Positions 4,564 to 45,983 of a stretch of 64,000 nt of DNA are shown piece after piece. The translations under genes and the position numbers were made by a program. This DNA comes from an uncultured bacterium (GTDB taxonomy: Bacteria > Patescibacteriota > Microgenomatia > UBA1400 > CG1-02-47-37): positions 1,726-65,725 of the forward strand of contig CAXBYZ010000002.1 of NCBI GenBank assembly GCA_963980215.1. Reading direction: 5' to 3'. The notes beneath the pieces were generated by a model. It saw nothing but the letters and a program-made list of their open reading frames with translations. It did not search any database and was not told where the DNA came from. Numbering within the stretch: the stretch's first letter is position 1; each line of letters begins with the position of its first letter.

Positions 4564-5661
4564 ATGAAACAACCAGTAATTTTAGCTATCGACACTTCCT
4601 GCGATGAAACCGCCGCCGCCGTTTCTCGTGGCCGTAAAATTCTTAGTAACGTCATCTCCTCTCAAATTAACATCCATAAAAAATGGGGCGGCGTCGTCCC
4701 TCATCTAGCTAAACGCGCTCATTTGGAAAAAATAAAACCAGTGGTAAATAAAGCTTTATTACAAGCAGGGTTCGGAACTTCAGCAATTGCGACTCCGACG
4801 AAAGTCGGAGCTAGTTCCGAACCTAAAAACCTTACCGGCATCGACGCCATCGCCGTCACCATCGGCCCCGGCTTAGCTCCGGCTCTAGAAGTAGGTCTGG
4901 CCTACGCCAAAAAACTCGCCCAAGAGCACCACAAACCCCTCATCGCTATCAACCACATGGAAGGCCACCTACTCTCTTCTCTCGCCCTACCCAACTCTCA
5001 CACACATACTGGTTCGGAACCAGTATGTGACTTCCCCACCATTGGCTTACTCGTCTCCGGTGGTCACACCCAACTAGTTTTAGTTAAAAAAATTGGCGAC
5101 TATCAGCTCTTGGGTGAAACCCTAGATGATGCCGGCGGCGAAGCTCTAGACAAACTAGCTAAAATGTTAAAACTAGGCTACCCCGGTGGCCCGATTGTGG
5201 AAGAACTAGCCAAAAAAGGTCTTCCTGGCACTATTTCCTTACCAGTGCCAATTCAACACTCCAAAGATTTTAACTTTAGTTTTAGTGGTTTAAAAACCGC
5301 TGCCCTCTACCAAATTCAAGCTCAAAAAAAAATCACCAAAACCTACACCTCCAACATGTGTTATTCCTTTCAACAAGCCATCACTATATCTTTAACTACC
5401 AAACTTACTCGAGCCATCAACCAATATCGTCCCAAAAGCATCTTGCTTGGTGGTGGTGTCTTTTCTAACATCTACATTAGAAGTCAAGTCAGACAAACCG
5501 TCAAAAAATTCAACTTACCCTTACACCTTCCCTACTCCAAAAAACTATTTACAGATAACGCCGCCATGATTGCCATTCCCGCCTACTACAAATTCATGCA
5601 AAAAGACTTTGCAAAAAATCTTGACACCCTCGACCGCCAACCTAGTCTAAATTTTAATTAA
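4564..5661 (+). CDS. tsaD: tRNA N6-adenosine threonylcarbamoyltransferase TsaD (Kae1/YgjD family)
   Basis: MKQPVILAIDTSCDETAAAV..., GVVPHLAKRAH, IAVTIGPGLAPALEVGL and the His pair (INHMEGH). The start is refined to the ATG at 4564. It contains two in-frame hairpin elements (4769-4823 and 5003-5029). Confidence 0.85.
   Translation: MKQPVILAIDTSCDETAAAVSRGRKILSNVISSQINIHKKWGGVVPHLAKRAHLEKIKPVVNKALLQAGFGTSAIATPTKVGASSEPKNLTGIDAIAVTIGPGLAPALEVGLAYAKKLAQEHHKPLIAINHMEGHLLSSLALPNSHTHTGSEPVCDFPTIGLLVSGGHTQLVLVKKIGDYQLLGETLDDAGGEALDKLAKMLKLGYPGGPIVEELAKKGLPGTISLPVPIQHSKDFNFSFSGLKTAALYQIQAQKKITKTYTSNMCYSFQQAITISLTTKLTRAINQYRPKSILLGGGVFSNIYIRSQVRQTVKKFNLPLHLPYSKKLFTDNAAMIAIPAYYKFMQKDFAKNLDTLDRQPSLNFN
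4769..4823. repeat. 55-bp composite hairpin element inside tsaD
   Basis: GGTTCGGAAC...GACTCCGACGAAAGTCGGAGC...GTTCCGAACC; a near-identical copy at 19503-19557. Confidence 0.8.
5003..5029. repeat. 27-bp perfect palindrome CACATACTGGTTCGGAACCAGTATGTG in frame inside tsaD
   Basis: Encodes HTGSEPVC; related copy at 54033-54057 in leuS. Confidence 0.8.
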
Positions 5662-7861: not shown

Positions 7862-7933
7862 GCTCTCATAGTTTAATGGATAAAACAGAGGTTTCCTAAA
7901 CCTCCGATGCAAGTTCGATTCTTGCTGGGGGCA
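7862..7933 (+). tRNA. tRNA-Arg (anticodon CCT)
   Basis: Hand-folded. Acceptor GCTCTCA/TGGGGGC (two G-U pairs), D-arm GTTT-AATGGATA-AAAC, anticodon arm GAGGT-TTCCTAA-ACCTC, a 4-nt variable loop, T-arm GCAAG-TTCGATT-CTTGC. No encoded CCA. Confidence 0.55.
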
Positions 7934-7938
7934 CATCT

Positions 7939-7963
7939 ACATGAAGGTTCGTAACCTTCATGT
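7939..7963. repeat. 25-bp perfect hairpin element ACATGAAGGTTCGTAACCTTCATGT in the spacer between the two tRNAs
   Basis: An identical 25-mer recurs at 24160-24184. Confidence 0.8.
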
Positions 7964-7968
7964 ACCAT

Positions 7969-8041
7969 CGGGGTGTAGCGCAGTTGGTAGCGCGCGTCGT
8001 TCGGGACGGCGAGGTCGTGAGTTCAAATCTCACCACCCCGA
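7969..8041 (+). tRNA. tRNA-Pro (anticodon CGG)
   Basis: Acceptor CGGGGTG/CACCCCG, D-arm GCGC-AGTTGGTA-GCGC, anticodon arm CGTCG-TTCGGGA-CGGCG, T-arm GTGAG-TTCAAAT-CTCAC, discriminator A. Confidence 0.75.
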
Positions 8042-17086: not shown

Positions 17087-18337
17087 CTAACTCAATATCT
17101 CCCTTGCCACCTCACTTTCCCTCATCTCCCCCAGTAATTTCTGCGCTTCAAGATACATCCCTGCATTATATCCACTATTCTCCCAATCACGACTACAGAC
17201 AACATCCGTGCTCACAGTGCTTGACCTATCCAAATTATATGGCCGTAAACCCACCCGATTAATCTTCACTCTCCGAATAACCGGCACCATCGTGCCTCTC
17301 TCGGTCAACTGCAACCCCAAAGCCCGACCATCTAGCTTAGATAAATCATTTTCCTGTATCTCTGCCAAAGTCCTCGCCGTCAACCAATCAACTAACCTTA
17401 CTACTCGATCTACATAACTATTATCACCTGTCTGACGGACTGGCCAACCCGGCATAAAATTCCATACCTCCCATTTATATCCATGACTATCATCCAAAGT
17501 CACCCTCAACTTATCCGGCCTAATAGAAAAAACTACACCCAAACCATGCATCACCGCACTTACCCGCAAACCACAACACTGAGTAATTTGACTACTCTCT
17601 TTATTCCGCAGATTACTAGTCCAAGTTAAGTTATCTCTATGATATTTGCGCAGATTATCAGCCATTGCTAGCAACATTCCCCCCATTTCCATTTCCTTCC
17701 AAGCCAGAGTCATCTCTTGCGGACCAGGGAACTGCACCAGCCATTGACTCCGTTCCTGAGGATCCAAACTATCAAATGATAAAGTACCGCTAAACGGATA
17801 ACCAGCCCTGATCTTAGCTATTACTTTCTCCATCATTAAGTTATATGCAAACTGTCCGTCTACTTCTTTCTCAAGGATCGTCTGATTACTGTTATATCCA
17901 ATCGCCAACCTCCTATCATCCAAAGTCGACCTCACCCAATTCAACCCCTTCTCTGATATTGTAGGAGTTACTATCCTAAAGCTATTATCTAAATATCTAA
18001 TATATTCCCCATAATATGCGTCATCATCTTTTTTATAAATCAACGGCACACCACCTTCGTCAGACTTAACCGGCCTTGATGCCCACCACAAATCCGTCAA
18101 CCTAGACAAATGACTTATCCCCACCCTCATCGCCATCCTCAAATGCTCCTGTGTTACTTTCTCTCCTTTCATTAATGCCTCAGCATAACCTGGATGATCC
18201 ATCGCCCAACCAGCCGCCATCAGCTTACCCAAAGAAAGTTTAGGATATGGTGACTGCCTTTCCGGCCTACCATCCACCACACTATATCCACTCACGAAAT
18301 CTGGCATTAAAGATTTCTGCCTTGCGCGTTCTGTCAT
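17087..18337 (-). CDS. Hypothetical protein (416 aa)
   Basis: A long ORF convergent with the 905-aa gene. Confidence 0.4.
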   Translation of the reverse strand: MTERARQKSLMPDFVSGYSVVDGRPERQSPYPKLSLGKLMAAGWAMDHPGYAEALMKGEKVTQEHLRMAMRVGISHLSRLTDLWWASRPVKSDEGGVPLIYKKDDDAYYGEYIRYLDNSFRIVTPTISEKGLNWVRSTLDDRRLAIGYNSNQTILEKEVDGQFAYNLMMEKVIAKIRAGYPFSGTLSFDSLDPQERSQWLVQFPGPQEMTLAWKEMEMGGMLLAMADNLRKYHRDNLTWTSNLRNKESSQITQCCGLRVSAVMHGLGVVFSIRPDKLRVTLDDSHGYKWEVWNFMPGWPVRQTGDNSYVDRVVRLVDWLTARTLAEIQENDLSKLDGRALGLQLTERGTMVPVIRRVKINRVGLRPYNLDRSSTVSTDVVCSRDWENSGYNAGMYLEAQKLLGEMRESEVAREILS

Positions 18338-18437: not shown

Positions 18438-19667
18438 ATGACACCAAAATCCTGGCAGCTAAAACTTTTCTACCTCATCTTATTTTTAATTCCTTCCAAT
18501 CTCGCCAAACACTTCATCCTCCCTTCATCCTACGTCTCCGGCATCTTAGTTGACTACCTCATCCCTACTATTTATCTCACTGATATTCTTATCCTCACCC
18601 TCCTTGTTTGTAACAAAGGACTGTCCTTTGTTACAGTTGTTAAATCAAGCTTTTTTGTTTTCTTGCTCTGCTTACTCCCCTCAATCATTTTCGCCTCCTC
18701 CCCAATTCCAGCTATCTACAAGTACTTAAAACTCATAGAGCTAGTCTTATTTTCCCTCTGGGTCAAACAAAATATTAATCTAAAAAAACATCTACAACCC
18801 ATTATTACTATCCTTACCCTCTCTACCCTCTTTCAATCTCTCCTAGCCTTAACTCAATGGTTCAAACAATCATCGCTTTTTGGTTACTATTTTTTGGGCG
18901 AACAACCCTTTACCTCAGCTTCAGTTGGTATTGATAAAATCACTTGGTTCACTGGCGCTATCAAAATCCCCCCTATGGGCACCTTCCCTCACCCCAATGT
19001 TTTAGGAGGCTTTTTAGCCGTAGTTTTACCGCTTATCCTCTATAAGGGTCTTAATTCCAACACAAGGTTACGAACCTTGTGTTACACCTCATTTTTGCTC
19101 GGTCTCCTCACCCTTTTTCTCACCTTCTCTCTCTCCGCTTGGTTAGCCTTTCTCTTAATCGGCCTTCCCCTCACCCTAAAGAAAATATTTAAGGTTCGGA
19201 ACCTTAAATTTATCTTTATCTACTCAGGGCTTTTCTTAATCCTCTTTTCTTTTGCTACCAAATTTACCTTTCTTGCTCCCCAAAGCTCCTTTAGCCGTCG
19301 TTCTCAACTAACCCAGATTGCTCTCAAATCTTTTACCCACTCACCCATTGTTGGTGTTGGCCTTAATAACTTTACCATTAACATGGAACACTACGGCTAC
19401 ATCACTTCCACTACTCGTTTTCTCCAACCCGTCCATAACATCTTTCTTTTAATCCTCTCCGAAACCGGCCTCATCGGCCTTGCTGGCTTTCTTTATCTTT
19501 TAGGTTCAAAACTTCAGCAATTGCGACTCCGACAAAAGTCGGAGCAAGTTTTGAACCTAAAAATATTCTTAATCCCTCTCCTCACCCTCCTCTTCCTCGG
19601 CCTCTTCGATCACTACCCTTTTACCATCCAACAAAGTTTATTGCTACTCTTTACCCTAATTAACTAA
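18438..19667 (+). CDS. Polytopic membrane protein, O-antigen ligase/polymerase (Wzy)-like
   Basis: About 10 predicted TM helices and a central loop, lying in a glycan locus. It carries four in-frame palindromic elements (18610, 19063, 19185, 19503). Confidence 0.4.
   Translation: MTPKSWQLKLFYLILFLIPSNLAKHFILPSSYVSGILVDYLIPTIYLTDILILTLLVCNKGLSFVTVVKSSFFVFLLCLLPSIIFASSPIPAIYKYLKLIELVLFSLWVKQNINLKKHLQPIITILTLSTLFQSLLALTQWFKQSSLFGYYFLGEQPFTSASVGIDKITWFTGAIKIPPMGTFPHPNVLGGFLAVVLPLILYKGLNSNTRLRTLCYTSFLLGLLTLFLTFSLSAWLAFLLIGLPLTLKKIFKVRNLKFIFIYSGLFLILFSFATKFTFLAPQSSFSRRSQLTQIALKSFTHSPIVGVGLNNFTINMEHYGYITSTTRFLQPVHNIFLLILSETGLIGLAGFLYLLGSKLQQLRLRQKSEQVLNLKIFLIPLLTLLFLGLFDHYPFTIQQSLLLLFTLIN
18610..18634. 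repeat. REP copy (GTAACAAAGGACTGTCCTTTGTTAC) in frame inside the Wzy-like gene
   Basis: Reverse-complement-centre version of the RAYT-flanking REP; it encodes CNKGLSFVT. Confidence 0.8.
19503..19557. repeat. 55-bp composite hairpin element inside the Wzy-like gene
   Basis: A copy of the 4769-4823 element with about 6 substitutions. Confidence 0.8.
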
Positions 19668-20966: not shown

Positions 20967-22712
20967 TCACATCTTTTCCGGCGCCTCTATTCCCAACATC
21001 CCCAAACCTCTCTTTAATATCTCCCCGGTTACTTTAGTCAACCACAATCTAAAATTCTTTTGCTCTTCACTCTCCGCTTTTAATATCGAGCACTTATTGT
21101 AAAAACTATTATATTTTTGGGCCAAATCATACAAGTAATTAGCTACCAAATTAGGCGCCAACTCCTCCGCCGCTTCTATAACCACTTCCTCAAACCGATA
21201 CAAACTTCTCAACACTACTTTCTCCTCCTCTTTCAAATTTTCCAGGTTCGGAACCTGGAATTTACTATCGGACTTGAGTAGTACCGACTGAGTCCGGGCA
21301 TAAGTATACTGCAAATACGGCCCCGAGTTCCCCTGCAAACTCACCGCTTCTTCCATATCGAAATTAATCTTCACCCCTGGTCCAACCTTTAAAAACGAGT
21401 ACTTCACCGCTCCCACTCCAATCATTTCCGCCGTTTTTTCGTCCACTTTATAACTAGCTTGAACTTTTTTTACCGCCTCATCCAGCAACCACCAACCAGT
21501 CACCACTCTTCCGGTTCTCGAGGACATCTTACCACCCTTTAAATCCACCAACTCATAAACCCGATGGTACTGCTTATCTTTAAACATCTTTGGATCTAGC
21601 AATTCTTCTACCTTAAAAGTCACCTCAAAAAAACTCCTCTGTTCCGGACCCACTACATGAATACACTTATCAATCTCCCCAAAATCACTAAACTCTTGTG
21701 GCGCCAAACCCAACTCCTTGGCTTCATAAGTTGCCAAGCCAATACTATTAATAAACACCCTAGTATCCAAACCATACTGAGATCCGTCAAACACCACTGC
21801 CCCTTCACTTTTCTTTAATATTCCCCTCTCCAAGGCTTTCTTTGCAATCTTTAAACCCTCACCACACTCCGACTCAAAATATAGTTTATCGTACTTAGTT
21901 CCCACCCGTTTATAAATCAGTTCAAAGTACTCCAAACTCCAATTTCTGGTCTCCTGATAAATCTCAATCACCTCCCCCTCTCCTTTACCTTCATAAATCT
22001 CTTGATTAATCTTAATAATCTCAATCTTGACTTTTTCATGCTTTTCGTAAGCCGTTGCCCCCTTAGCATAAGCCTTCCCCAAAAACTCAATTCTCTCTAA
22101 AATTGACTTACTTTTAACTAGATTGAACTCTTTTGATATAGATAAAATCCCCCACAAGGCTTTAGCAATATGAAGACCCACGTCACCTTGATAATTGACT
22201 CGTATTACCTTGATTCCCACCGCTTCAAGCAATCTGGTGATCGACTCTCCCAAGGAGATATTCCTCAAATGGCCAATGTGAAACTGTTTATGAGTGTTGG
22301 GGTGAGCATACTCCACCATCACTTTTTCACCCCACTTAGTCTTACTTTTAAACTTACCCTCTAGCACTCTTTCAGCTTCTTTGATAAGGGCATCCTCTTG
22401 GATTGATATATTAATAAATCCTGGTCCAGCAACTTCAATTTTTTTAACCAATTTCTTTGACATTTGTTCGTGTAATCTCTCAACAACCTTCTCTGCTAAC
22501 TCTCGAGGTGACCTCGGTTCCGAACTCACACCTCCAAGGTGGTGTTGCGCCTGCGGCTCACCTTGAAGGTGTGACCAAATCACCATCGCCACATTACAAG
22601 CAAAATCCCCATGAGTCATGTCTTCAGGATGCTCCACTTCAAACTCAACTTTTTCTAGCCCCATTTGACTAACTACTTCTTGGATTTGTTTTTTAATTTT
22701 ATCTTTTAGCAT
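20967..22712 (-). CDS. argS: Arginine--tRNA ligase
   Basis: The class I HIGH motif (FHIGHLRN), a KMSS-like motif (GGKMSSRTG) and a C-terminal DALR anticodon-binding region. It contains in-frame elements at 21241 and 22527. Confidence 0.9.
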   Translation of the reverse strand: MLKDKIKKQIQEVVSQMGLEKVEFEVEHPEDMTHGDFACNVAMVIWSHLQGEPQAQHHLGGVSSEPRSPRELAEKVVERLHEQMSKKLVKKIEVAGPGFINISIQEDALIKEAERVLEGKFKSKTKWGEKVMVEYAHPNTHKQFHIGHLRNISLGESITRLLEAVGIKVIRVNYQGDVGLHIAKALWGILSISKEFNLVKSKSILERIEFLGKAYAKGATAYEKHEKVKIEIIKINQEIYEGKGEGEVIEIYQETRNWSLEYFELIYKRVGTKYDKLYFESECGEGLKIAKKALERGILKKSEGAVVFDGSQYGLDTRVFINSIGLATYEAKELGLAPQEFSDFGEIDKCIHVVGPEQRSFFEVTFKVEELLDPKMFKDKQYHRVYELVDLKGGKMSSRTGRVVTGWWLLDEAVKKVQASYKVDEKTAEMIGVGAVKYSFLKVGPGVKINFDMEEAVSLQGNSGPYLQYTYARTQSVLLKSDSKFQVPNLENLKEEEKVVLRSLYRFEEVVIEAAEELAPNLVANYLYDLAQKYNSFYNKCSILKAESEEQKNFRLWLTKVTGEILKRGLGMLGIEAPEKM

Positions 22713-24122: not shown

Positions 24123-24159
24123 AAATATATTCTACTCCACCCGCATCAAAATTTCCACA

Positions 24160-24184
24160 TGAAGGTTCGTAACCTTCATGTAAG
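24160..24184. repeat. 25-bp hairpin element ACATGAAGGTTCGTAACCTTCATGT (second copy)
   Basis: Identical to 7939-7963; intergenic. Confidence 0.8.
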
Positions 24185-24244: not shown

Positions 24245-25675
24245 ATGAAAATAGTCATCGGCTACCCCCCCTTAGAATCCAAAAAAGGCACCGCCCTTCT
24301 TTCTCAAAATCGCCAGTTCCAGTGGTTTTCTTCTCCCACCTACATCTATCCCGTCATTCCCGCCTCAACAGCCACTCTTTTAGCAAAAAACGGTCACCAA
24401 GTTCTCTGGCTCGACGGCATTGCCGAAAACTGGACCTACCAACAATGGTTAAAACAACTCAAAGACTTCAAACCCGACCTTTTGTTCATGGAATCCAAAA
24501 CCCCAGTCATTAAGGCTCACTGGAAAATCATCAAAGATCTCAAACGCAAGGTTCCGAACCTTAAATGTGTCTTGGTCGGTGACCATGTTACCGCCTTACC
24601 CAAAGAGTCCTTCAAACACTCGCCCGTCGACTTTGTTATCTCTGGTGGCAACTACGACCTCGCTTTACTCGATCTCGTAACCAAACTCAAAAACAAAAAG
24701 AAAGTCACTCCAATCACTTATGCCCCTTCAAACTACAACCTCACCAAGCTTCCTTTCATCGATCGAAAGCTAACCAAGTGGCACCTCTACGCCTCCAAAA
24801 ACGGTAACTTCAAGTACTTCCCCGGTACCTACACTATGGCCGGTCGGGATTGCTGGTGGCGCCAAAATGGTGGCTGTACTTTTTGTTCCTGGACCACCTT
24901 GTATCCCCAATTTTCCTCCCGCACGCCAACAAATCTCCTAGACGAAATTGGTCAATTGATCAAGATTGGAGTCAAAGAAGTTTTTGACGACACCGGCACT
25001 TTTCCCATCGGTGATTGGTTAACCAAGTTTTGTCAAGGCATGGTCAAACTCGGCTACCACAAACAAATCACTTTCGGGTGCAACATGCGTTACGGAGTTT
25101 TAACCAAAAAAGACTATACATTAATGGCCAAAGCTAACTTTCGCTTCATCCTCTACGGCCTTGAATCGGTAAACCCCAAAACCATCAAACGTTTAAACAA
25201 AGGCACCAAGCCTTCAAAAATCAAAGCCGAGCTTGAAGTTATCAAGCAAGTAAATCAGGAATTAAAAGGTCATCTAGAACCCCACGTTACTTGCATGATT
25301 GGCTATCCATGGGAAAGCTATCAGGACGCCCAAAACACCGTCAACTACACTAAATCTCTCTTCAAAAAAGGCCTCATCGACTCTCTCCAAGCCACCATCT
25401 GCATTCCCTATCCAGGCACCAAACTCTACAGCCAATGTCAAAAAAATCACTGGCTCAAAACCACCAACTACAACCACTACGACATGCGTCAACCAATCAT
25501 GAAAACCAAGATAAAAAACCAAGACCTACTCAAACTCACCAGAAACATCTACACCTCCTGTCTCACTCCAAAGTTCATCCTAAAAAAACTTTTTTCTATC
25601 AGAAACTTCAACGACCTCAAATGGTTCTACAACGCTAGCTTTAAAGTCCTCGCTCACTTACTAGATTTTTCATGA
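24245..25675 (+). CDS. B12-binding-domain radical SAM protein
   Basis: An N-terminal cobalamin-binding-like Rossmann segment (VLWLDGIAE...KCVLVGDHVTALP) followed by a Cys cluster (CWWRQNGGCTFC) and a TIM-barrel-length remainder. The start is refined to the ATG at 24245. Confidence 0.5.
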   Translation: MKIVIGYPPLESKKGTALLSQNRQFQWFSSPTYIYPVIPASTATLLAKNGHQVLWLDGIAENWTYQQWLKQLKDFKPDLLFMESKTPVIKAHWKIIKDLKRKVPNLKCVLVGDHVTALPKESFKHSPVDFVISGGNYDLALLDLVTKLKNKKKVTPITYAPSNYNLTKLPFIDRKLTKWHLYASKNGNFKYFPGTYTMAGRDCWWRQNGGCTFCSWTTLYPQFSSRTPTNLLDEIGQLIKIGVKEVFDDTGTFPIGDWLTKFCQGMVKLGYHKQITFGCNMRYGVLTKKDYTLMAKANFRFILYGLESVNPKTIKRLNKGTKPSKIKAELEVIKQVNQELKGHLEPHVTCMIGYPWESYQDAQNTVNYTKSLFKKGLIDSLQATICIPYPGTKLYSQCQKNHWLKTTNYNHYDMRQPIMKTKIKNQDLLKLTRNIYTSCLTPKFILKKLFSIRNFNDLKWFYNASFKVLAHLLDFS

Positions 25676-26487
25676 CTCACTCCATTGCCACTATTATCAA
25701 TTTTTGTAGTAACGACAAACTTTTTATCCACCACACTATCAACCAAGTTAAAAAATTCTCAAGCCAAATAATTATTCCTTACTGCGACCACTTCTACGAC
25801 GGCACTCCTGAAGATCAAAGCTTAATCTCTAAAACCATTGCAAAACACCCCACAGTTAAATTCATCCCCTTTCAATACGACCCCAATGCCACCAAAACTT
25901 TATGGCGCGGTTGGCAATTTATCTTACGCCGCCTCACCAAAACCCAAGTCTGGGGACCCCAACACTGGATCTGTCATGCCCGTTTACTAGGAACTACTTA
26001 CCTCAAAAAAAACATCAAATACGTCCTCTTTTTAGACGCCGACGAAGTCCCCGATGGCAAACGCTTTAAAGGTTGGCTAGACACCAAAAACTACCAAAAA
26101 TATAATGCCATAAAGTCTGCTAATTACTGGTACTTTAGATCACCCAAACACCAAGCCACTACCTTTGAAGACTCAAGCTTATTAGTCAAAAGAACTTCTT
26201 TAACTCAAGCCGTCTTCATGGATCACGATGAACGAAACGCTACCTACAACTCCATCCCTCACCCCAAAAAAAGAATGGTTTTAGGTTTAGACAGTAAACC
26301 CATGATCCACCACTACGGCTGGGCTAAACCCAAAGCCAATCTCCTTAAAAAAGTCAAAACCTGGGGGCACTCCAAAGACCGAAATTGGACCAAGTTAATC
26401 GAAAAAGAGTTTCAAAAACCTTTCTCCGGCACAGACTTTATCTACCACCGTCGCTTCACCACCGTCAAACCTTTCCTTCACTTGTAA
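25672..26487 (+). CDS. Hypothetical protein, possibly a glycosyltransferase (DxD-like LFLDADE)
   Basis: Its stop codon lies inside the upstream REP. Confidence 0.3.
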   Translation: MTHSIATIINFCSNDKLFIHHTINQVKKFSSQIIIPYCDHFYDGTPEDQSLISKTIAKHPTVKFIPFQYDPNATKTLWRGWQFILRRLTKTQVWGPQHWICHARLLGTTYLKKNIKYVLFLDADEVPDGKRFKGWLDTKNYQKYNAIKSANYWYFRSPKHQATTFEDSSLLVKRTSLTQAVFMDHDERNATYNSIPHPKKRMVLGLDSKPMIHHYGWAKPKANLLKKVKTWGHSKDRNWTKLIEKEFQKPFSGTDFIYHRRFTTVKPFLHL

Positions 26488-26508
26488 CAAAGGACAGTCC
26501 TTTGTTAC
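26484..26508. repeat. REP, 25-bp perfect palindrome GTAACAAAGGACAGTCCTTTGTTAC (5' flank of the RAYT gene)
   Basis: It is identical to the copy at 27165-27189. It contains the stop codon of the upstream gene and ends 9 nt before the RAYT start codon. Confidence 0.85.
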
Positions 26509-26517
26509 AATAATAAT

Positions 26518-27168
26518 ATGCCTTCCAAAAACGAACTTAAACAATACCTAAAAAATGGTTACTATCATATATACAATCGTGGGGTTGATAAAAGAATCAT
26601 TTATAAAGATGAGCAAGACTACGGTGTCTTTTTAAACTTCCTAAAATATTACCTATCTTCCCTTCCAAAACTAAATCCACTTAGAAAAATAACAATTAGA
26701 GAAAGTAAAACGTATCAAATTAGCGATTACAAATGCAAAAACTATCACCAAGCCGTCACTTTACTCGCCTACTGCCTAATGCCCAACCACTTTCATTTAC
26801 TCATCAAACAAACTGAATCCAGAAATATTGAATCTTTCATGAAATCTATTGGCACCAGATACTCAATGTACTTTAACAAACGCTATCAAAGATCTGGCCA
26901 CCTCTTCCAGGGTAGATACAATGCCGTCTTGGTTGATTCCGACGAACAACTCATTCATCTTTCTCGCTACATTCATTTAAATCCCTCTCCAAATCTTTTT
27001 AAGCAGCCTTCTAGCTATCCTGATTATCTCAACCAAAAAAACACCCCATGGCTTCAGAAGCAAGATGTCACTCAACACTTCAAAAATTCACTTGCTTACA
27101 AAAAATTCGTCCAAACTCCCGACCAATCCGCCCTCTCAATCCTCTCCAAACTCACCCTAGATTCGTAA
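26518..27168 (+). CDS. REP-associated tyrosine transposase (RAYT / TnpA-REP, IS200-like HUH Y1 transposase)
   Basis: YHIYNRG, AYCLMPNHFHLL (the HuH motif) and RYSMYFNKRYQRSGHLFQGRYNAVLVDSDEQLIHLSRYIHLNP (catalytic Tyr region). It is collinear with E. coli RAYT motifs and flanked on both sides by the palindromic REP. Confidence 0.85.
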   Translation: MPSKNELKQYLKNGYYHIYNRGVDKRIIYKDEQDYGVFLNFLKYYLSSLPKLNPLRKITIRESKTYQISDYKCKNYHQAVTLLAYCLMPNHFHLLIKQTESRNIESFMKSIGTRYSMYFNKRYQRSGHLFQGRYNAVLVDSDEQLIHLSRYIHLNPSPNLFKQPSSYPDYLNQKNTPWLQKQDVTQHFKNSLAYKKFVQTPDQSALSILSKLTLDS

Positions 27169-27189
27169 CAAAGGACAGTCCTTTGTTAC
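27165..27189. repeat. REP, 25-bp palindrome (3' flank of the RAYT gene)
   Basis: Identical to 26484-26508; overlaps the RAYT stop codon. Confidence 0.85.
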
Positions 27190-28628: not shown

Positions 28629-29350
28629 AATTTTCTTACCTTAATAGCTAAAGCAGCTCCGCTTTTTAATCTCATAAATTTTCTCTTCTCTACCTTAAAA
28701 GAAATTCCCAACTTATTCAACCACAAGCACTTATGCCACTCACCAATCGTCTTTGTATCCAAGTAATAATAACTATCTACCAACTTCAATCCGAACTTTT
28801 TCAACAAACTCACCCACTTTTCTCTCGAGTACAAATGATAGTGATTATATTTTTTATTAAACAAAAAGCCATATAATTTTCCCCAACCAATATATGAGAT
28901 TAACTGATCACTCGGCATGGTGGCTACCAATAAACCACCCGGCTTTAACACCCGGCTCACCTCTCTTAGCACTCTTTCCAACTTACTGATATGCTCCAAG
29001 ACACTATTACTAAACATCACCTCAAACTCACCGTCAGCAAATGGCATCTCTCCAGCATCAGCCAACACCACTTCTTTATACACCCCGCTCTTCCTGGCTT
29101 TCCTCACCATCCCTTCATCATTATCAAGCCCTGTAACAAAGGACTGTCCTTTGTTACACTTTCCACCAAACACTTCCTTAGCAATCTCACCCTCGCCACA
29201 CCCCAAATCAAGAACTTTTTTACCAATAAAGTCTTTCCCCCACTCTTGTTTCACCAGCCCCACCTCAATTTCTCTCCAAATATTTGTTACTTGATCAAAC
29301 TTCATATTAAAATGGTTTCCCGGTAATATATGCCAAAGCCTTCCCAGCAT
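28625..29350 (-). CDS. Class I SAM-dependent methyltransferase
   Basis: Motif I VLDLGCGEGEIAKEV, motif II (VVLADAGEMPF) and a motif III region. Confidence 0.6.
   Translation of the reverse strand: MLGRLWHILPGNHFNMKFDQVTNIWREIEVGLVKQEWGKDFIGKKVLDLGCGEGEIAKEVFGGKCNKGQSFVTGLDNDEGMVRKARKSGVYKEVVLADAGEMPFADGEFEVMFSNSVLEHISKLERVLREVSRVLKPGGLLVATMPSDQLISYIGWGKLYGFLFNKKYNHYHLYSREKWVSLLKKFGLKLVDSYYYLDTKTIGEWHKCLWLNKLGISFKVEKRKFMRLKSGAALAIKVRKL
29134..29158. repeat. REP copy in frame inside the methyltransferase gene 28625-29350
   Basis: Encodes CNKGQSFVT on the - strand. Confidence 0.8.
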
Positions 29351-30371
29351 ACCAACTAACCCCTCTTTTCACCAACACTTTATCCATCCAGTTGTCATCA
29401 CTCATCAAATGCTTCTTAACCCATCTTCTTTTCCGCCACAACTTACCCAAATTACCAATCCACCAACCCGTTGCTCTTTCAATAGCCCACACATGATTGA
29501 TTTTACCTTTAATTAAAAACAAAAACTCCAGCCCCACCCAACCCACCGCTACACCAACCAACATTTGCCACTTTTTTAAACCCTCCCCATTCTTAAACAC
29601 CGTCATCGCTTGGTTTCTACACGCCAAGTACACCTGCTGATAATCCGTCTCTCTGGGGATCGGCTTAAGTTTGGTTCCATAAGCATGCTCCACTACCCCC
29701 ATCCACAAAAACCTTACCTCATATCCACTCTTCCACACTCTCCAAAACAAATCCGGCTCCTCCCAATAGTACACATAATCCTCATCCAAACCTCCAACTT
29801 TATAAAACACATCTTTTCGCACCACCATGCCCGCTCCCTTGCCAGAAAAAATTGCATCATCGCTATCAAACTGCCCCTCATCTTTTGCCTCTCTGGCTCT
29901 CTCCACCAAAAACCCATTTAAAGTCACCAACTCCCCCGCACTATCATACTTTTTACTTCCAATCCGTAGTAACTTCAACTGTCCCGCTCCAACCCTGGGA
30001 TGTCTATCTAAATACTTCACCACTCTATCCAAGCCCTCTCCCAACTTAGTATCATTATCCAAAAAGACCAAGTACTTTCCCCTGGCCACTCTAGCCCCAA
30101 CATTCCTAGCTTTACTCGGATTACCTTCCTGAATCTGTAGCAACTTAACAGGTTTATTCTTTAACCATCTCCTTACTCTATCTGCTTTATCAAAATCCAA
30201 CCCATTATTAATCACAATTATTTCTGCTTTTTCCACCTCCGAGGTGGTGTTGCGCCTGTGGCACACCTCGGAGGTGTGGTTAAGCACAGATTTCACCGTC
30301 TCTTTGAATAACGAGTCCCAGCGATGATTGGCAATAATTATCGACACCCTTACAACCATCTTCGTCTCCAC
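29307..30371 (-). CDS. GT2-family glycosyltransferase
   Basis: The SIIIANHR start motif and a DxD (YLVFLDNDT). It carries an in-frame palindromic element at 30234-30279. Confidence 0.6.
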   Translation of the reverse strand: METKMVVRVSIIIANHRWDSLFKETVKSVLNHTSEVCHRRNTTSEVEKAEIIVINNGLDFDKADRVRRWLKNKPVKLLQIQEGNPSKARNVGARVARGKYLVFLDNDTKLGEGLDRVVKYLDRHPRVGAGQLKLLRIGSKKYDSAGELVTLNGFLVERAREAKDEGQFDSDDAIFSGKGAGMVVRKDVFYKVGGLDEDYVYYWEEPDLFWRVWKSGYEVRFLWMGVVEHAYGTKLKPIPRETDYQQVYLACRNQAMTVFKNGEGLKKWQMLVGVAVGWVGLEFLFLIKGKINHVWAIERATGWWIGNLGKLWRKRRWVKKHLMSDDNWMDKVLVKRGVSWYAGKALAYITGKPF

Positions 30372-31584: not shown

Positions 31585-32636
31585 ACCAACTCCTCAAACA
31601 TCTCCTCATAATTTTTAGCTATCCTCTCCCAACCAAACCTCTCCAACCACCTCTCTCTTTCCCGCCTCTGTGTAACAAAGGTCCGACCTTTGTTACAAGC
31701 CTGCTCCAATTTTTTTGAGTACTCCTCACCCCAAACATCTTTCACATAAATTCCAAACTCTCCCAACAACTCCCGACGAAGCTCATCATCAGTCACTACC
31801 ATTGGTAATCCACTTGCCAAGGCTTCCAAATTCACAATCCCAAACTCCTCTGTACTCTCTGATACCATCGTAAATACGTCACACGCTCTATACACCTGAT
31901 CCAAATCTTTGTACTCCACTTTCATTCTCAAAAACCTCTTACCTAATAATCGTTTCCCCAACTTCTCCATCTCATCACTCCCACCAACCAGCAACAAACT
32001 AGCTTCCTTAACTTTGACCATCGCTTTTATCGTCGCCTCCACTCGCTTATACCTATCCGGCCCAGCCACACACAAAACTACTGCCTTAGTCTCGCGACGA
32101 AGCTTTTCCAGAGATTCACTTTTCAACCTCTTTCCCTCCGGACTAAATCTTTTCAAATCCACTCCATGAGGAGCAATCTCAATCTTTACTCCCTTACTAT
32201 ATTTTCTAGCCCACTTAGCGTTTCGCTTGGTTGAAGCCACAAACACATCCGGTCGCATCAATAAGTTCCAGCGATCACACCAACCCAAACCAGCCAATCC
32301 CGGAATTACCAACTTTATCCCCGTTAACCAACTATACAATCGGCAAAGCAAACTCTGCCAACCCCCATTCACCGGAATTAAAAAATCTACCTCACCAACT
32401 TTTTTCAACGCTTTCACCGTAAACCAAAAAATCTTCAAGTGATAATAATCCAGCATCAACATTCTCCAACTATTCCCTTTAGTCATCTTTTCCCAATCTA
32501 CTTTCATTCCCAAACTCTCTGCACTTATCACCTGAACTTCATGTCTCTTTTTCCATTCTTGCTCCAACTCCCTCACCACCGTTTCCACTCCTCGGCTAAT
32601 CTGTCCGCTAGTAAAACTTAAAACCGCTATCTTCAT
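31581..32636 (-). CDS. GT4 (GT-B) glycosyltransferase
   Basis: The C-terminal E...FGIVNLEALASGLPMVVTD signature of GT4 enzymes. Confidence 0.65.
   Translation of the reverse strand: MKIAVLSFTSGQISRGVETVVRELEQEWKKRHEVQVISAESLGMKVDWEKMTKGNSWRMLMLDYYHLKIFWFTVKALKKVGEVDFLIPVNGGWQSLLCRLYSWLTGIKLVIPGLAGLGWCDRWNLLMRPDVFVASTKRNAKWARKYSKGVKIEIAPHGVDLKRFSPEGKRLKSESLEKLRRETKAVVLCVAGPDRYKRVEATIKAMVKVKEASLLLVGGSDEMEKLGKRLLGKRFLRMKVEYKDLDQVYRACDVFTMVSESTEEFGIVNLEALASGLPMVVTDDELRRELLGEFGIYVKDVWGEEYSKKLEQACNKGRTFVTQRRERERWLERFGWERIAKNYEEMFEELV
31672..31696. repeat. REP variant (GTAACAAAGGTCCGACCTTTGTTAC) in frame inside the GT4 gene
   Basis: Same arms, different centre; encodes CNKGRTFVT. Confidence 0.7.
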
Positions 32637-33652
32637 ATCCTATAGTTAGTCAAGGTTCGTAACCTTGAGTAAATAACTGCCTTTGAATATATAAATACCA
32701 TACTAACACACACCAGCGGATGCCAGAACCAAGCAATATCTGGCTTAGATATATATCCAAAAAAAGACTCCAGTATCGGCCCAATAAAAGTTATAGAGTA
32801 AATACAATATCCAATTACTTTAATCACATCCTTAAAATCTCGCACCCAAACAAAACGCCGAATCTTCCTTTGCTCCAAGTAAAGCTTGGTCATGTACTTA
32901 TAACGCTTCCTTAGTGACTTTAAAAAGCTCTCACCAGTGTCGTGAACAATCGTATTTTTCACCACTCCAAACTTATCTTCTCCCATACTAACCAAGTCCC
33001 AAAACACATCTATATGCGAAAAATTCTTCTCACTTACCTTCGCTTTCATTAGCTTCTCCCGCCACACCAAAACTCCGTTATCTCCCAAAGTTGGCATGCT
33101 ATCTTTACTAAACTTCACTCTCCACCAACTTCCTTTATCCTCCACTCTGCCCGCCAACCTCCATTTCTCACTCCCCCAACTTTGACGGTCAGCTCGACCC
33201 ATAAACTTGGCCACCGGATCGTTAGCTCCCATCAAGGCATAGTAGCGATTCAAGCTAGTGTCGGTTTTTCTCACTTCATACCGCCAGGGATAAACTGCCA
33301 CTAACTTAGGCTCACTTTCAAGCACCTTAACCATCTTTGATAGCCAATCTTTAGTTGGCAGTACATTATCACTAGCTATCAATAAAATCAGCTCGCCCTT
33401 TGCCTGCCTTAAACCAGTTGCTTTAGCAGATTCGGGATTACCAGTCTTCTCGCTCACCACTTTACAACCATACTTCTTCAACACTTCCACCGTCCCATCA
33501 TCAGATCCACCATCGGCCACTATTATCTCTACCTCACCCACATAATCTTGCTCCCTCACAATCTTCAAACAGGCCTCAACCGTTCTAATACTATTAAACG
33601 TCGGCATCACCACACTAATAGATCTCATATCTACATAGTATACTATTCCCAA
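32633..33652 (-). CDS. GT2-family glycosyltransferase
   Basis: ISVVMPTFNSIRTVEACL and the GGSDDGT motif. The 3' end contains an in-frame hairpin element (32640-32671). Confidence 0.65.
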   Translation of the reverse strand: MGIVYYVDMRSISVVMPTFNSIRTVEACLKIVREQDYVGEVEIIVADGGSDDGTVEVLKKYGCKVVSEKTGNPESAKATGLRQAKGELILLIASDNVLPTKDWLSKMVKVLESEPKLVAVYPWRYEVRKTDTSLNRYYALMGANDPVAKFMGRADRQSWGSEKWRLAGRVEDKGSWWRVKFSKDSMPTLGDNGVLVWREKLMKAKVSEKNFSHIDVFWDLVSMGEDKFGVVKNTIVHDTGESFLKSLRKRYKYMTKLYLEQRKIRRFVWVRDFKDVIKVIGYCIYSITFIGPILESFFGYISKPDIAWFWHPLVCVSMVFIYSKAVIYSRLRTLTNYRI

Positions 33653-36890: not shown

Positions 36891-37035
36891 ATAAGTATAT
36901 GATACGAAATACTTATCAAAATGTCAACCCACAACCTTCAACCCTATAGTCAGTCAAGGTTCGTAACCTTGAGTTCTTCCCCCTGACAGGGACTGTCCCT
37001 GTCAACCTACAAGGATCATCCTTGTAGGCTACAAT

Positions 37036-39919: not shown

Positions 39920-40654
39920 TTGACCCTAATGAAACTCGTCTCCATCATCATCCCTGCTTTCAAGCAGGAAAAGACTATCTTAAAAGATTTAAAGCGCATC
40001 GAAAAATCTCTAAAATCTATTAGATACCCTTACGAAATTATCGTGGTTATCGACGGAGCCATCGACCAAACCTATCGTAAAATAAAAAAACTAGCTAACC
40101 CTCAACTCAAAGTTTACCTTCTCAAAAAAAACTTAGGCAAAGGCTACGCCGTTCGCTTCGGCATGACCAAAGCTAAAGGCGACTATATTGCTTTTCTAGA
40201 CGCCGGCATGGAGATAGACCCCAACGCCATCTCCATGTTACTTGAACATCTCGAGTGGTACCACGCCGATATCGTGGTCGGCAGTAAACGCCACCTAGCC
40301 TCAAAAGTCTTTTATCCCTGGGACCGAAAGATTCTTTCATGGGGTTACTACCAACTCGTCCGCCTCCTTTTTGGGGTCAAAATTAGAGACACCCAATCCG
40401 GCATCAAGGTTTTTAAACGAAAAGTCTTAACCACTATCTTACCCAAACTGGTGGTCAAAAAATACGCCTTCGACATCGAGATCTTAGCCGTAGCCCACCG
40501 CTTAGGTTTTAAAAAAATCTACGAAGCCCCCATCAAGCTCAAGTATCACTTTGGCTCAGTCACCGACGCCGCTACCATAAACACTATTTATCACATGCTA
40601 ATAGACACACTCGCCGTCTGGTACCGATTAAAAATCTTAAAGTTTTATGACTAG
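39920..40654 (+). CDS. GT2 glycosyltransferase (dolichyl-phosphate mannose synthase-like)
   Basis: VSIIIPAFKQEKTILKDL, DGAIDQT and a DxD (FLDAGME). Confidence 0.65.
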   Translation: MTLMKLVSIIIPAFKQEKTILKDLKRIEKSLKSIRYPYEIIVVIDGAIDQTYRKIKKLANPQLKVYLLKKNLGKGYAVRFGMTKAKGDYIAFLDAGMEIDPNAISMLLEHLEWYHADIVVGSKRHLASKVFYPWDRKILSWGYYQLVRLLFGVKIRDTQSGIKVFKRKVLTTILPKLVVKKYAFDIEILAVAHRLGFKKIYEAPIKLKYHFGSVTDAATINTIYHMLIDTLAVWYRLKILKFYD

Positions 40655-41639
40655 TCAAGGAAAGGGTTCCGAACTTCAAAGTAATAGGGTTCCGAACCTC
40701 CAGCGGTCTGCAGCGTCAGCGAAAGACGGTTCGGAACCTTCAACGTTTGCCATCATCATCCCCTGTAAATCCCTAAAAGACCTTTGCCCCGAGCTCCTCC
40801 CGGCCCTAAAAACCCAATCTCTCCCTCCCGCCAAAATCATTATCATTCCTGACTCCCTTAACCATGTTAACAAAGGAGACTCCTTTGTTAAAGTTTTACC
40901 CAAGGCTGGCGACCCCGCCACCAAGCGCGACTATGCTGTTAAACACCTCAAGAAAACAGTAGGAACGGTTCCTACTGTTTTAGCCTTTATCGACTCGGAT
41001 GCCTACCCGGATAAAAACTGGCTTAAGAATGCTACTAAACACTTGAAACCAAAAAACATCGCCGCCGTCTGCGGGCCGGGCCTCACCCCACCCCAAAACT
41101 CCAAACTTCAAAAACTCTCCGGCCTCATTTGGTCCAGCTTTATTGGCGCTGGCCCTTACCGCTTCCGAAACCGCCCTTTAAAACCCCGCTTCGTCGACGA
41201 CTACCCCACCTTCAACCTCCTCGTCAAAACCAAAGACTTTCAAAAAATCGGTGGCTTTGACACCAAGTACTGGCCCGGTGAAGACACCAAGCTTTGCCTC
41301 GATCTCACCCACCAACTCCATAAAAAAATTCTCTATCACCCATCTATCATCGTCTTTCATCATCGCCGTCCCCTTTGGCTCCCTCACCTTCAGCAACTCT
41401 CCCGCTACGGCTTTCAACGCGGTCGATTTGTTAAACTTTTCCCCCAAACCTCCCGTCGCTTCTCTTACTTTTTACCCCTGCTATTTCTTCTCTCCCTACC
41501 CCTAACTTGGCCTTTCTATCTCGCCACTATCTTACTCACCGGCATCTATCATCAATCCCTTCTCCTGCCCCAAGCCCTACTCTTAACCCACCTCACCTAC
41601 GCTATCTACTTTCTCAAAGGCCTTCTAACAAACTCTTGA
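40647..41639 (+). CDS. GT2-like glycosyltransferase with C-terminal TM helices; its N-terminus is built from tandem hairpin elements
   Basis: FAIIIPC start motif, FIDSDAYP (DxD) and WPGEDTKLC. The first ~35 codons are three GGTTCCGAACC-type elements (40667-40747). It also contains a REP variant (40866). Confidence 0.5.
   Translation: MTSQGKGSELQSNRVPNLQRSAASAKDGSEPSTFAIIIPCKSLKDLCPELLPALKTQSLPPAKIIIIPDSLNHVNKGDSFVKVLPKAGDPATKRDYAVKHLKKTVGTVPTVLAFIDSDAYPDKNWLKNATKHLKPKNIAAVCGPGLTPPQNSKLQKLSGLIWSSFIGAGPYRFRNRPLKPRFVDDYPTFNLLVKTKDFQKIGGFDTKYWPGEDTKLCLDLTHQLHKKILYHPSIIVFHHRRPLWLPHLQQLSRYGFQRGRFVKLFPQTSRRFSYFLPLLFLLSLPLTWPFYLATILLTGIYHQSLLLPQALLLTHLTYAIYFLKGLLTNS
40866..40890. repeat. REP variant (GTTAACAAAGGAGACTCCTTTGTTAA) in frame inside the GT2 gene 40647-41639
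   Basis: Encodes VNKGDSFVK. Confidence 0.6.
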
Positions 41640-45125: not shown

Positions 45126-45983
45126 TCATTTTATCCACCACTTTTCACCAGTACTAACTAACCTCACCAAACCATCTTCATCAGTCCGCTTAATCATCGC
45201 TCCCAGCTCTCTCAATCTCTCCAGCACTTCCCTAGTTGGGTGCCCAAATCGATTTTTGCCTACCGAAATCACTGCCAACTCCGGCTTCACTGCTAAAAGA
45301 AACTCCCCACTTGTACTAGTTTTGGATCCATGATGAGCTACTTTTAACACTTCTACGTCTGTTAGTTTATCAGTTAACCTCAACTCATCCTCTATCTTTG
45401 TATCAATATCTCCGGTTAACAAAAACTCAAATTTCCCATAGCTTCCCCTCAACACCGTCGACACTTCATTAATATCTTTAATCTCACACACCTCGGAGGT
45501 GATCTCAATCGGATACAGCACCTCTAAACTCACCTCTCCCAACCTCACCCCATCCCCAGCCTTAAATTCGAGGTTCGTAACCTCGAATTTTTCCATCACC
45601 CGCTTCAACTCCCTTACCTCAGCAATGTCATTCTCCACTCCACTCATATAAAAATTCTCTACCTCATATCTCTTCAAAACCTCGATCATCCCTGTCATAT
45701 GATCTGCTTGAGGATGAGTCACTACCACCAACTCTATCTTTCTATCCCAAAAAGGCATACTCTTCCCCAAACAAGACAAAACCGAACTATCCGGACCCCC
45801 ATCTACCAACATCTGATAACTTCCCCAAGACACTAAAGTTGCATCTCCTTGACCTACATCACAAAAAGATAACTCTAATCTCTTTTTTGGCAACTGAAAA
45901 GCCACCAAAACCAACAAAAATAACAGCAACACCAAACTAAAATTAATCTGTTTTAATAAATTTTTCTTCTCAATCTCATCCAT
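45126..45983 (-). CDS. ComEC/Rec2 metallo-beta-lactamase domain protein (ComEC C-terminal module as a separate gene)
   Basis: An N-terminal TM anchor, then MLVDGGPD and VVTHPQADH (the MBL HxHxDH motif), then VAHHGSKTS. Confidence 0.6.
   Translation of the reverse strand: MDEIEKKNLLKQINFSLVLLLFLLVLVAFQLPKKRLELSFCDVGQGDATLVSWGSYQMLVDGGPDSSVLSCLGKSMPFWDRKIELVVVTHPQADHMTGMIEVLKRYEVENFYMSGVENDIAEVRELKRVMEKFEVTNLEFKAGDGVRLGEVSLEVLYPIEITSEVCEIKDINEVSTVLRGSYGKFEFLLTGDIDTKIEDELRLTDKLTDVEVLKVAHHGSKTSTSGEFLLAVKPELAVISVGKNRFGHPTREVLERLRELGAMIKRTDEDGLVRLVSTGEKWWIK

Follow-up and report, generated by a model that had tools for sequence, protein, structure and literature searches.

The tsaD gene on a 64,000-nt stretch of contig CAXBYZ010000002.1 from an uncultured bacterium contains a 55-nt composite stem-loop at positions 4769-4823. 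We assign this element, with a probability of about 0.6, to a population of hairpin repeats, taken to be mobile, within the tiny genome of a Beckwithbacteria-like organism (Microgenomates, candidate phyla radiation, CPR), which carries them intact and in frame at loops and linkers of proteins, essential ones included. The population resembles the repetitive extragenic palindromes (REPs) and the REP doublets forming hairpins (REPINs), which are mobilised by REP-associated tyrosine transposases (RAYTs), and its palindromic repeats are probably selfish. In the following, the window is the whole stretch of 64,000 nt, and L numbers denote loci fetched from other assemblies. By TsaD, the nearest species genomes in GTDB are those of Candidatus Beckwithbacteria (Patescibacteria/Microgenomates) with 62-66% identity.

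Structure and covariation of the element

A preliminary description of this DNA had placed the 55-bp sequence at 4769-4823 and its recurrence at 19503-19557. Both positions are exact, and 6 of the 55 bases differ. The two copies it counted are real, but the window has three. Copy 1 (4769-4829, + strand) consists of the 55-nt hairpin in tsaD and a TAAAAA tail and scores 95 bits with our covariance model. Copy 2 (19498-19563, + strand, 91 bits) lies in the C-terminal loop of a Wzy_C (O-antigen-ligase-like) gene, and the divergent copy 3 (1708-1775, + strand, 48.8 bits, E 1.6e-10) is found in the linker of a Sua5/TsaC-TsaE fusion. Because the 3' tail TAAAAA is common to copies 1 and 2, the repeat extends over 61 nt at 90% identity (4769-4829 and 19503-19563). 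The number of matches to the 55-nt element expected in dinucleotide shuffles is zero.

None of the differences between copies 1 and 2 breaks a base pair. The left arm changes from GG to AA and the right arm from CC to TT, which amounts to two compensatory pairs, and the tetraloop changes from GAAA to AAAA. At the junction, a T to A exchange makes the outer stem of copy 2 longer, and this stem reaches 17 bp (TTTTAGGTTCAAAACTT/AAGTTTTGAACCTAAAA). Copy 3 has both inner hairpins altered in sequence with their pairing intact, and it retains the junction bases TCA/GA/CT as well as the tail TAAAAA. Identical copies are present in independent assemblies of the same organism, the Wzy copy in one from JGI (L001) and the tsaD and Sua5-TsaE copies in one from ENA (L082), so that an assembly artefact can be dismissed.

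The fold is a Y-shaped three-way junction in which the outer stem meets two hairpins, a small one of GCAATTGC and one of CTCCGAC/GTCGGAG. RNA folding of copies 1 and 2 gives the identical structure with a dG of -31.4 kcal/mol each (z -5.6 and -8.6, respectively), in agreement with the stem-loop first described. Folding as DNA gives a dG of -19.3 and -22.2 (z -5.6 and -8.3), and the same fold is predicted for copy 3 as DNA. A covariance model seeded with two window copies and a homologue in L004, where the host is a PEGA-domain protein gene, detects further homologues in L087, antisense to an ArgRS gene, and in L084, in loop 1 of TsaD. Further copies thus exist beyond the two first noted, one in the window and three in the loci of relatives.

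Across these six sequences, 98.5% of the paired cells hold a pair, in an alignment that is fitted to the covariance model itself. The fold is conserved, with compensatory changes on both sides in 10 of the 22 pairs, a number that none of 500 shuffles reaches and that collapses in slid controls. Covariation is present in all three helices, and the Y shape is predicted independently in five of the six members. Conservation extends to the unpaired bases TCA, GA and CT of the junction, where TC and GA pair with each other around a bulged A. Among 132 cells, the only departures from Watson-Crick pairing are two wobble pairs and two mismatches. The GNRA-like loop of the inner stem is not a conserved feature, as three members have GAAA, AAAA and GAAC and two have no tetraloop (TT..TC, TT..CC). 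Overall, the conserved fold suits an RNA no better than a substrate of single-stranded DNA.

Comparison of the window with Rfam at gathering scores returns only two tRNAs, and with E up to 10 the matches are at chance level. A hammerhead-like core was considered as well and rejected, since the junction bases TCA/GA/CT do not fit. The signature of the type-1 element has no match in viral contigs.

Core palindromes in the window and in relatives

Each arm of the outer stem is an 11-nt palindrome, GGTTCSGAACY. The arm sequences GGTTCGGAACT and AGTTCCGAACC are both palindromic and both form the core of simple palindromes. It follows that the Y-shaped element is an inverted doublet of this simple unit (GGTTCGGAACT ... 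AGTTCCGAACC) around a structured spacer of 33 nt. When a perfect palindrome is defined by an arm of at least 9 nt and a loop of at most 4 nt, the window contains 19 of them, compared to 1.1 expected from dinucleotide shuffles, and many have arms of 12-14 nt. Several unrelated palindrome families coexist. The core family is characterised by GGTTC-S-GAACC or GGTT-CGT-AACC, and the motif GGTT-NNN-AACC occurs 13 times in 64 kb, in 11 cases as the centre of a simple palindrome. Its variants CGG, CCG, CGT and ACG, as well as AAAA/TTTT in copy 2, all keep the pairing.

The simple core palindromes are dispersed over the window. A second insertion in tsaD is a perfect palindrome of 27 nt (5003-5029) whose core is GGTTCgGAACC. 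Others are located in the Wzy gene (19059-19083 and 19187-19209), in ArgRS (21240-21260), in an MBL-fold gene (45564-45590), in LeuRS (54032-54056), in an intergenic region (24157-24181), between two tRNA genes (7938-7964) and at 32650-32668 and 36954-36972, and an imperfect one lies in a radical SAM gene (24540-24569). Larger forms of the same superfamily are found as well. A type-2 composite, GGTTCCGAAC..GGTTCCGAACC-tccagcggtctgcagcgtcagcgaaagac-GGTTCGGAACC, occupies the 5' end of the GT2 gene 40647-41639 (40665-40738, + strand, 29 bits), and relatives carry type-2 composites in L004 (3411-3460 and 5848-5897), L094 (2305-2356) and L084 (10262-10324). Relatives also have an intermediate form, GGTTCGGAACT-tcgtcgt-AGTTCCGAACC, which encodes GSELRRSSEP. 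The core is common to Beckwithbacteria-like genomes. L092 and L093 are nearly without palindromes, though similarly distant from the window, so the abundance of palindromes is lineage-specific.

The 27-nt palindrome at 7938-7964 belongs to the GGTT-CGT-AACC family and parts two tRNA genes (7862-8041), where it would sit in a shared precursor transcript. At 36954-37028, three distinct palindromes (TCAAGGTTcgtAACCTTGA, TGACAGGGACtGTCCCTGTCA, CCTACAAGGATcATCCTTGTAGG) stand back to back in one intergenic region, an arrangement that resembles REP clusters of the bacterial interspersed mosaic element (BIME) type. A sequence of about 30 nt, CCTATAGTyAGTCAAGGTTCGTAACCTTGAGT, occurs twice in direct orientation (32632-32672 and 36936-36976), 4.3 kb apart, and brackets five genes. 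A composite hairpin repeat of a different family, AAGGTCCG..TTGAAGGTACTCCTTTAAGGCCGGACCTT, is present at 784-839 and at 60635-60690, 88% identical over a distance of about 60 kb. Doublet hairpins with arms CACCTCCGAGGTG or ACACTCCCGGAGTG lie in ArgRS (22529-22573), in a GT2 gene (30234-30278) and in LeuRS (53157-53195), and their relatives are found in L005, in L006 and twice in the tsaD gene of L004, where they encode PNTPGVKPACAGREVPTPGVK.

Reading frames and positions of the inserts

The palindromes are hosted by tsaD, Wzy_C, Sua5-TsaE, ArgRS, LeuRS and glycosyltransferase genes. The genome is about 88% coding, and 13 of the 19 perfect palindromes lie inside open reading frames (ORFs), all of which stay open. 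The simple core is read in all three frames, as GSEP, VRNL and RLRT, and the second insertion in tsaD reads HTHTGSEPVC. In the Y-shaped element, two sense frames are read and the third has a stop codon; counting both strands, two of three sense frames and one of three antisense frames are open. The claim that the element is read in different frames in tsaD and in the membrane protein gene proved correct (GFGTSAIATPTKVGASSEP and GSKLQQLRLRQKSEQVLNL), and Pfam confirms the products as TsaD and Wzy_C.

Copy 1 is placed in the loop after helix 43-64 of TsaD and is read as GFGTSAIATPTKVGASSEPK, while copy 2 is read in the other frame as GSKLQQLRLRQKSEQVLNLK. Copy 3 lies in the fusion gene 1117-2235 between the Pfam domains at 21-199 and 224-341 and reads GGSELQALADANFIGTSSKPKK. 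Copies of the palindromic repeats that survive in permissive loops or linkers would be translated as 9-20 extra residues, and ALLQAGFGTSAIATPTK and VGASSEPK are examples of predicted tryptic peptides that span inserts. A protein search with a 57-aa concatenation of the three open frames of the element gave no word matches, and a 30-aa peptide from the window has no match among 1.84 billion representatives.

Comparison with TsaD orthologues supports the insertion, as P0002 and P0003, which are closely related, lack about 17 aa at this site. In the AlphaFold model of the window TsaD, residues 65-91 are coil, with a predicted local distance difference test score (pLDDT) below 50 at 70-80, and the insert encoded by 5003-5029 falls in coil 138-155. 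Both inserts are therefore placed between secondary-structure elements in the model. TsaD orthologues of the clade range from 332 to 442 aa, and three hypervariable hot spots carry recurring palindrome-encoded peptides that short orthologues do not have.

A sister family of palindromes at a transposase gene

The window contains a single Y1/HUH gene, which encodes a RAYT-like tyrosine transposase of 216 aa (26518-27168, + strand) and is located 22 kb from the 55-nt stem-loop. The product matches Pfam Y1_Tnp above the cut-off with E 8e-13. It has the HUH motif NHFHLL and the catalytic tyrosine in SRYIHLNP; the HUH motif and the YIHxNP tyrosine are invariant in the alignment of the transposase family. 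The only NCBIfam match is to the REP-associated tyrosine transposase (REP_Tyr_transpos), with 50 bits below the cut-off of 80. The family profile aligns the HUH motif and the tyrosine to ISDra2 TnpA (2xm3) weakly, with E 0.02, and a phmmer search of the transposase against the PDB gives no match.

Both ends of this gene are flanked by palindromes of a sister family, GTAACAAAGGAC-N-GTCCTTTGTTAC, in the form TGTAACAAAGGACaGTCCTTTGTTACA. The upstream palindrome TTGTAACAAAGGACaGTCCTTTGTTACAA (26482-26510) directly precedes the gene, and the downstream palindrome GTAACAAAGGACaGTCCTTTGTTAC (27165-27189) overlaps its stop codon. The sister family begins with GTAA. Six palindromes with GTAACAAAGGAC are present in the window, and repeat search places the four dispersed ones in the Wzy gene (18609-18635), a methyltransferase gene (29132-29158), a GT1 gene (31671-31697) and a GT2 gene (40867-40891). 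These four are all intragenic and all read (C/V)NKGxxFV(T/K). The TAA inside the flanking palindrome (GTAACA) is the stop of both the upstream ORF (26485-26487) and the transposase gene (27166-27168), so the sister family, in one frame, terminates ORFs.

The same association is observed in other genomes. Palindromes stand on both flanks of the transposase gene in eight of nine genomes, namely the window, L084, L087, L088, L089, L090, L091 and L095 (Woesebacteria). In the ninth, L096 (Curtissbacteria), a clear palindrome stands upstream, and a half site is the basis for deducing the one downstream. The sequence of the flanking palindrome changes from genome to genome and in most Beckwithbacteria-like genomes matches dispersed copies of the same genome. 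In close relatives, the transposase gene is syntenic, following a radical SAM gene. This arrangement is the signature of REP/RAYT systems (PMC5581495).

Like the GGTTCSGAACC family, the sister family has intragenic doublets whose spacers are structured. L002 has four, with three in tsaD. In this tsaD gene (L002, 3894-5138), three doublets of 70-74 nt, AAGGACAGTCCTT..44-47 nt..AAGGACTGTCCTT, occur one per hot-spot loop, and the fourth lies in another gene.

The possible mobility of the element, raised in the preliminary description, is supported by these observations. The same Y-shaped element is found in three unrelated genes of the window and in genes of relatives, in two frames and in both orientations, and it belongs to a large and dispersed set of palindromes, among them a REP/RAYT-like system.

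Orthologous insertion sites

Several sites of the window can be compared with their orthologues. At the site of copy 2, the Wzy orthologue of L084 carries the simple palindrome TATAAAGGTTCcGAACCTTTATA, and in loop 1 of TsaD, L083 has the simple palindrome AGGTTACGAACCT where the window has the composite. At the Sua5-TsaE linker, L094 has the simple palindrome ATTTACTGGTTCcGAACCAGTAAAT, L004 a type-2 composite and L092 no palindrome. A clean empty site was not found, as the orthologous sites examined (TsaD, Wzy, Sua5-TsaE) mostly carry other family members. Either the elements are old and diversify where they stand, growing at the hairpin centre, or new copies target existing cores.

Strand asymmetry and additional features

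The GC skew is between -0.27 and -0.54 in every 4-kb block of the window, regardless of gene orientation. In the related Beckwithbacteria-like assemblies (L002, L004, L082-L094) it amounts to |0.2-0.45|, compared to a median of 0.09 over all fetched loci. Due to this strong skew, the proteins of the two strands differ sharply in composition. The asymmetry may reflect long exposure of single strands, which could favour hairpin-dependent elements.

A 416-aa ORF at 17087-18337 (- strand) without Pfam or NCBIfam match is rich in R, G, W, M and E, unlike its neighbours, at least partly because it lies on the G-rich strand. At the syntenic position, relatives encode an M16 peptidase of similar length, which the ORF does not match. 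From 61700 to 64000, diverged tandem repeats of about 900-930 bp that are 70-80% identical, one pair at 98% and 1605 bp apart, continue beyond the end of the window; they likely belong to a large repetitive surface protein gene. Near the syntenic tsaD or transposase regions, AbiEii/Fic toxin-antitoxin-like genes are found in L084 (2218-4216) and L087 (14260-15551), and L094 has an intein-containing gene (58-1695).

Discussion

We propose that the basic mobile unit would be a short palindrome with the core GGTTC-S-GAACC and the Y-shaped element a doublet of such units. The element would adopt its fold while the DNA is single-stranded, such as on the lagging-strand template, and a HUH/Y1 tyrosine transposase of the RAYT kind would recognise, cut and re-insert the folded element. 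For the GGTTCSGAACC family, the enzyme may be a paralogue encoded elsewhere in the genome. New copies would often land in, or replace, existing core palindromes, which would account both for the nesting and for the presence of elements at corresponding sites of orthologues. With about 88% of the genome coding, most insertions would fall in genes. The surviving copies would be those that are in frame, lack stop codons and lie in permissive loops or linkers, where they would be translated. Compensatory changes would keep the pairing, as mobilisation may require the hairpin or template switching may let one arm correct the other.

A number of results weigh against this proposal. A transposase gene flanked by GGTTCSGAACC was found neither in the window nor in the 96 loci by a family hidden Markov model (HMM) search; the association with palindromes holds for the sister family, and an enzyme for the GGTTCSGAACC family is suggested by analogy only. 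No target-site duplication flanks the elements, and no systematic GTAG or CGTC tag stands beside any of 29 elements. The two best copies are only 89-90% identical, which does not support recent mobility, and there is no insertion polymorphism between strains, since the copies in L001 and L082 are identical and at the same sites. The size differences between simple and composite forms are 21, 33 and 51 nt, compared to 44 nt for a clean nested insertion, and therefore do not correspond to a single clean nested event. An exact search with the inner core GCAATTGCGACTCCGACNAAAGTCGGAGC in one genome per GTDB species gave no match elsewhere, and the single match in JGI metagenomes is the same organism and the same locus. 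The recurrence at orthologous sites can also be read as ancient insertions that evolve in place and grow at the hairpin centre.

Alternatively, no dedicated enzyme would transpose the palindromes, and they would originate where they stand. Hairpin-induced breaks, or template switching at quasi-palindromes, would make and lengthen perfect inverted repeats and short-patch gene conversion between the many shared arms would spread the inner modules among loci, or else the elements would be MITEs (miniature transposable elements with inverted repeats) of an unseen DDE transposon. The arms are perfectly complementary yet different between copies, different family members occupy the same orthologous sites, and a GC skew of about -0.4 suggests long single-strand exposure; the lack of target-site duplications and tags and of a cognate transposase for the GGTTCSGAACC family in the window and the 96 loci point the same way. 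We nevertheless consider this origin rather improbable. The same 33-nt spacer with its conserved junction is found in at least five unrelated genes and in several genomes, arms of 11 nt are short for recombination, and the same genome has a hairpin-flanked Y1 transposase gene whose palindrome family shows the same organisation in singlets and doublets. For the MITE variant, the window and the loci in addition contain no insertion sequence (IS) whose terminal repeats match. That the element is merely a selected peptide module, or the product of a two-gene duplication, of gene conversion or of assembly, is hardly credible. This could be entertained while two copies 14.7 kb apart were known, but the copies are read in different frames as unrelated peptides and the JGI and ENA assemblies reproduce them. 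The third copy and the homologues in other genomes rule out a gene-conversion artefact confined to two copies.

The stability of the hairpins (dG -31 kcal/mol, z -5.6 to -8.6), the covariation in all three helices, the conserved junction nucleotides and the sense orientation of five of the six members would all be expected from a functional structured RNA in the mRNAs, such as a site of processing, an element for stability or translation pausing, or a small ribozyme. We regard such a function as unlikely; neither the regulatory or processing site raised in the preliminary description nor a new regulatory RNA is supported. The sense bias requires no RNA function, because open frames number two of three in sense but just one of three in antisense orientation. 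Rfam yields no match even with E up to 10, the L087 member is antisense to its host gene, and the host genes are functionally unrelated, with the elements at permissive loops and linkers. The same outer stem occurs in DNA palindromes that have no orientation, some of them intergenic and some at the flanks of the transposase gene, and pairing is almost purely Watson-Crick, so that wobble pairs are not favoured (2 wobble pairs and 2 mismatches in 132 cells). Cutting inside essential mRNAs would also be costly, and for the suggested processing site, translation is a simpler outcome than excision because the ORFs remain open through the element. A further possibility is that GGTTCSGAACC is a palindrome under selection for protein binding, DNA uptake or restriction-modification and that the composite is incidental to it. 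The 11-nt core is indeed strongly over-represented, with 13 occurrences in 64 kb, and common to Beckwithbacteria-like genomes, and relatives have competence genes (Pfam Competence family, L090 and L091). This possibility appears very remote to us, as the core varies while its pairing is kept, the palindromes fall into several unrelated families, such a site would not be expected to form nested doublets around structured spacers and the close relatives L092 and L093 are nearly without palindromes.

Returning to mobile REP-like hairpins, a wider hypothesis can be put forward tentatively, and we hold it to be doubtful at present. Microgenomates may harbour a lineage-wide, vertically inherited RAYT-hairpin system with mainly intragenic repeats that insert preferentially into each other's hairpin centres, in a series that leads from the simple core to the extended hairpin and further to the Y-shaped doublet. 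Such a system might be a main cause of length variation in universal proteins such as TsaD, and the Y-shaped element might be a new folded single-stranded-DNA substrate of HUH enzymes, shaped like parvoviral terminal hairpins.

The repeats vary on known elements in being untagged and mostly intragenic, in the conserved Y-shaped doublet and in their occurrence in a new phylum with a distinct transposase subfamily. Nothing specific was found in the literature on such elements in CPR, Patescibacteria or Microgenomates. The system would be an example of selfish hairpin DNA that persists in a genome nearly devoid of intergenic space, as passengers translated along with the loops and linkers of essential genes. 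It would account for the striking length heterogeneity and for odd recurring peptides (GSEP, FGT..SSEP, CNKGxSFVT) in CPR proteins, which otherwise confuse alignment, phylogeny, domain annotation and RNA-motif discovery. Beyond that, it would extend REP/RAYT-type systems to the candidate phyla radiation and offer many natural transposase-hairpin pairs that covary between genomes and are useful for learning how such enzymes read their substrates.

Relation to other palindromic repeats

The closest known counterparts are the REP/REPIN-RAYT systems (Nunvar 2010; Bertels & Rainey 2011, PMC3116915; Ton-Hoang 2012; Di Nocera 2013, PMC3733652). Both comprise short palindromes in dispersed, diverged populations whose stems show compensatory changes, and in both, singlets stand next to inverted doublets that fold as one hairpin. 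A single, vertically inherited (syntenic) Y1/HUH gene flanked by the repeat belongs to the known systems and is seen here for the sister family only. In contrast to the known systems, the GGTTCSGAACC family has no adjoining transposase gene in the sequences examined, and the elements of the window lack the GTAG or CGTC tag of the two large REP superfamilies. REPs are typically extragenic, whereas 13 of the 19 perfect palindromes and all three Y-shaped copies are intragenic here. The spacer of the doublet is itself a conserved hairpin pair, which gives the Y shape, and the host belongs to the CPR, with a transposase of about 216 aa that stays below the NCBIfam cut-off for RAYTs.

Intragenic REPs and REP dimers that encode 20-30 aa have been reported from Opitutus terrae and Rickettsia (PMC3733652). 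The in-frame Rickettsia palindromic elements (RPEs; Ogata et al. 2000, 2002; see the summary in PMC10969869) are similar to the elements of the window in that they are palindromic, lie in frame in unrelated housekeeping genes at fold-compatible positions and occur in a reduced genome. RPEs are translated, as the elements of the window would be. They differ in size, with about 100-150 bp for RPE families and about 150 bp for RPE-1 compared to 23-65 nt here, and have no sequence relationship to our elements. RPEs have no known transposase partner, and RPE-4 and RPE-6 are classed as CGTC REPs. The Y-shaped element, on the other hand, is read in at least two frames.

With MITEs, the elements share a small size, a non-autonomous nature, terminal inverted repeats, dispersal and occasional in-frame fusions. 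Unlike MITEs, they show neither a target-site duplication nor, in the window and the loci, a parent IS whose ends match, they are hairpin throughout instead of two ends with unrelated filling, and their size is far below that of typical MITEs. Folded single-stranded DNA of T or Y shape is a substrate of HUH nucleases in the inverted terminal repeats of parvoviruses and adeno-associated virus (AAV), which are processed by Rep, and in the subterminal hairpins of IS200/IS605 elements. The likeness to AAV-type hairpins is one of shape only, with an outer palindrome around two inner palindromes and no sequence similarity. The element of the window is not located at the end of a replicon or IS. Perfect inverted repeats that are translated within genes are likewise found in the coding palindromes of Nematomorpha mitochondria (PMC6649704) and in mitochondrial hairpin elements. 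In Nematomorpha the arms encode conserved parts of the proteins and are not dispersed, whereas the palindromes described here are extra loop insertions that form repeat families.

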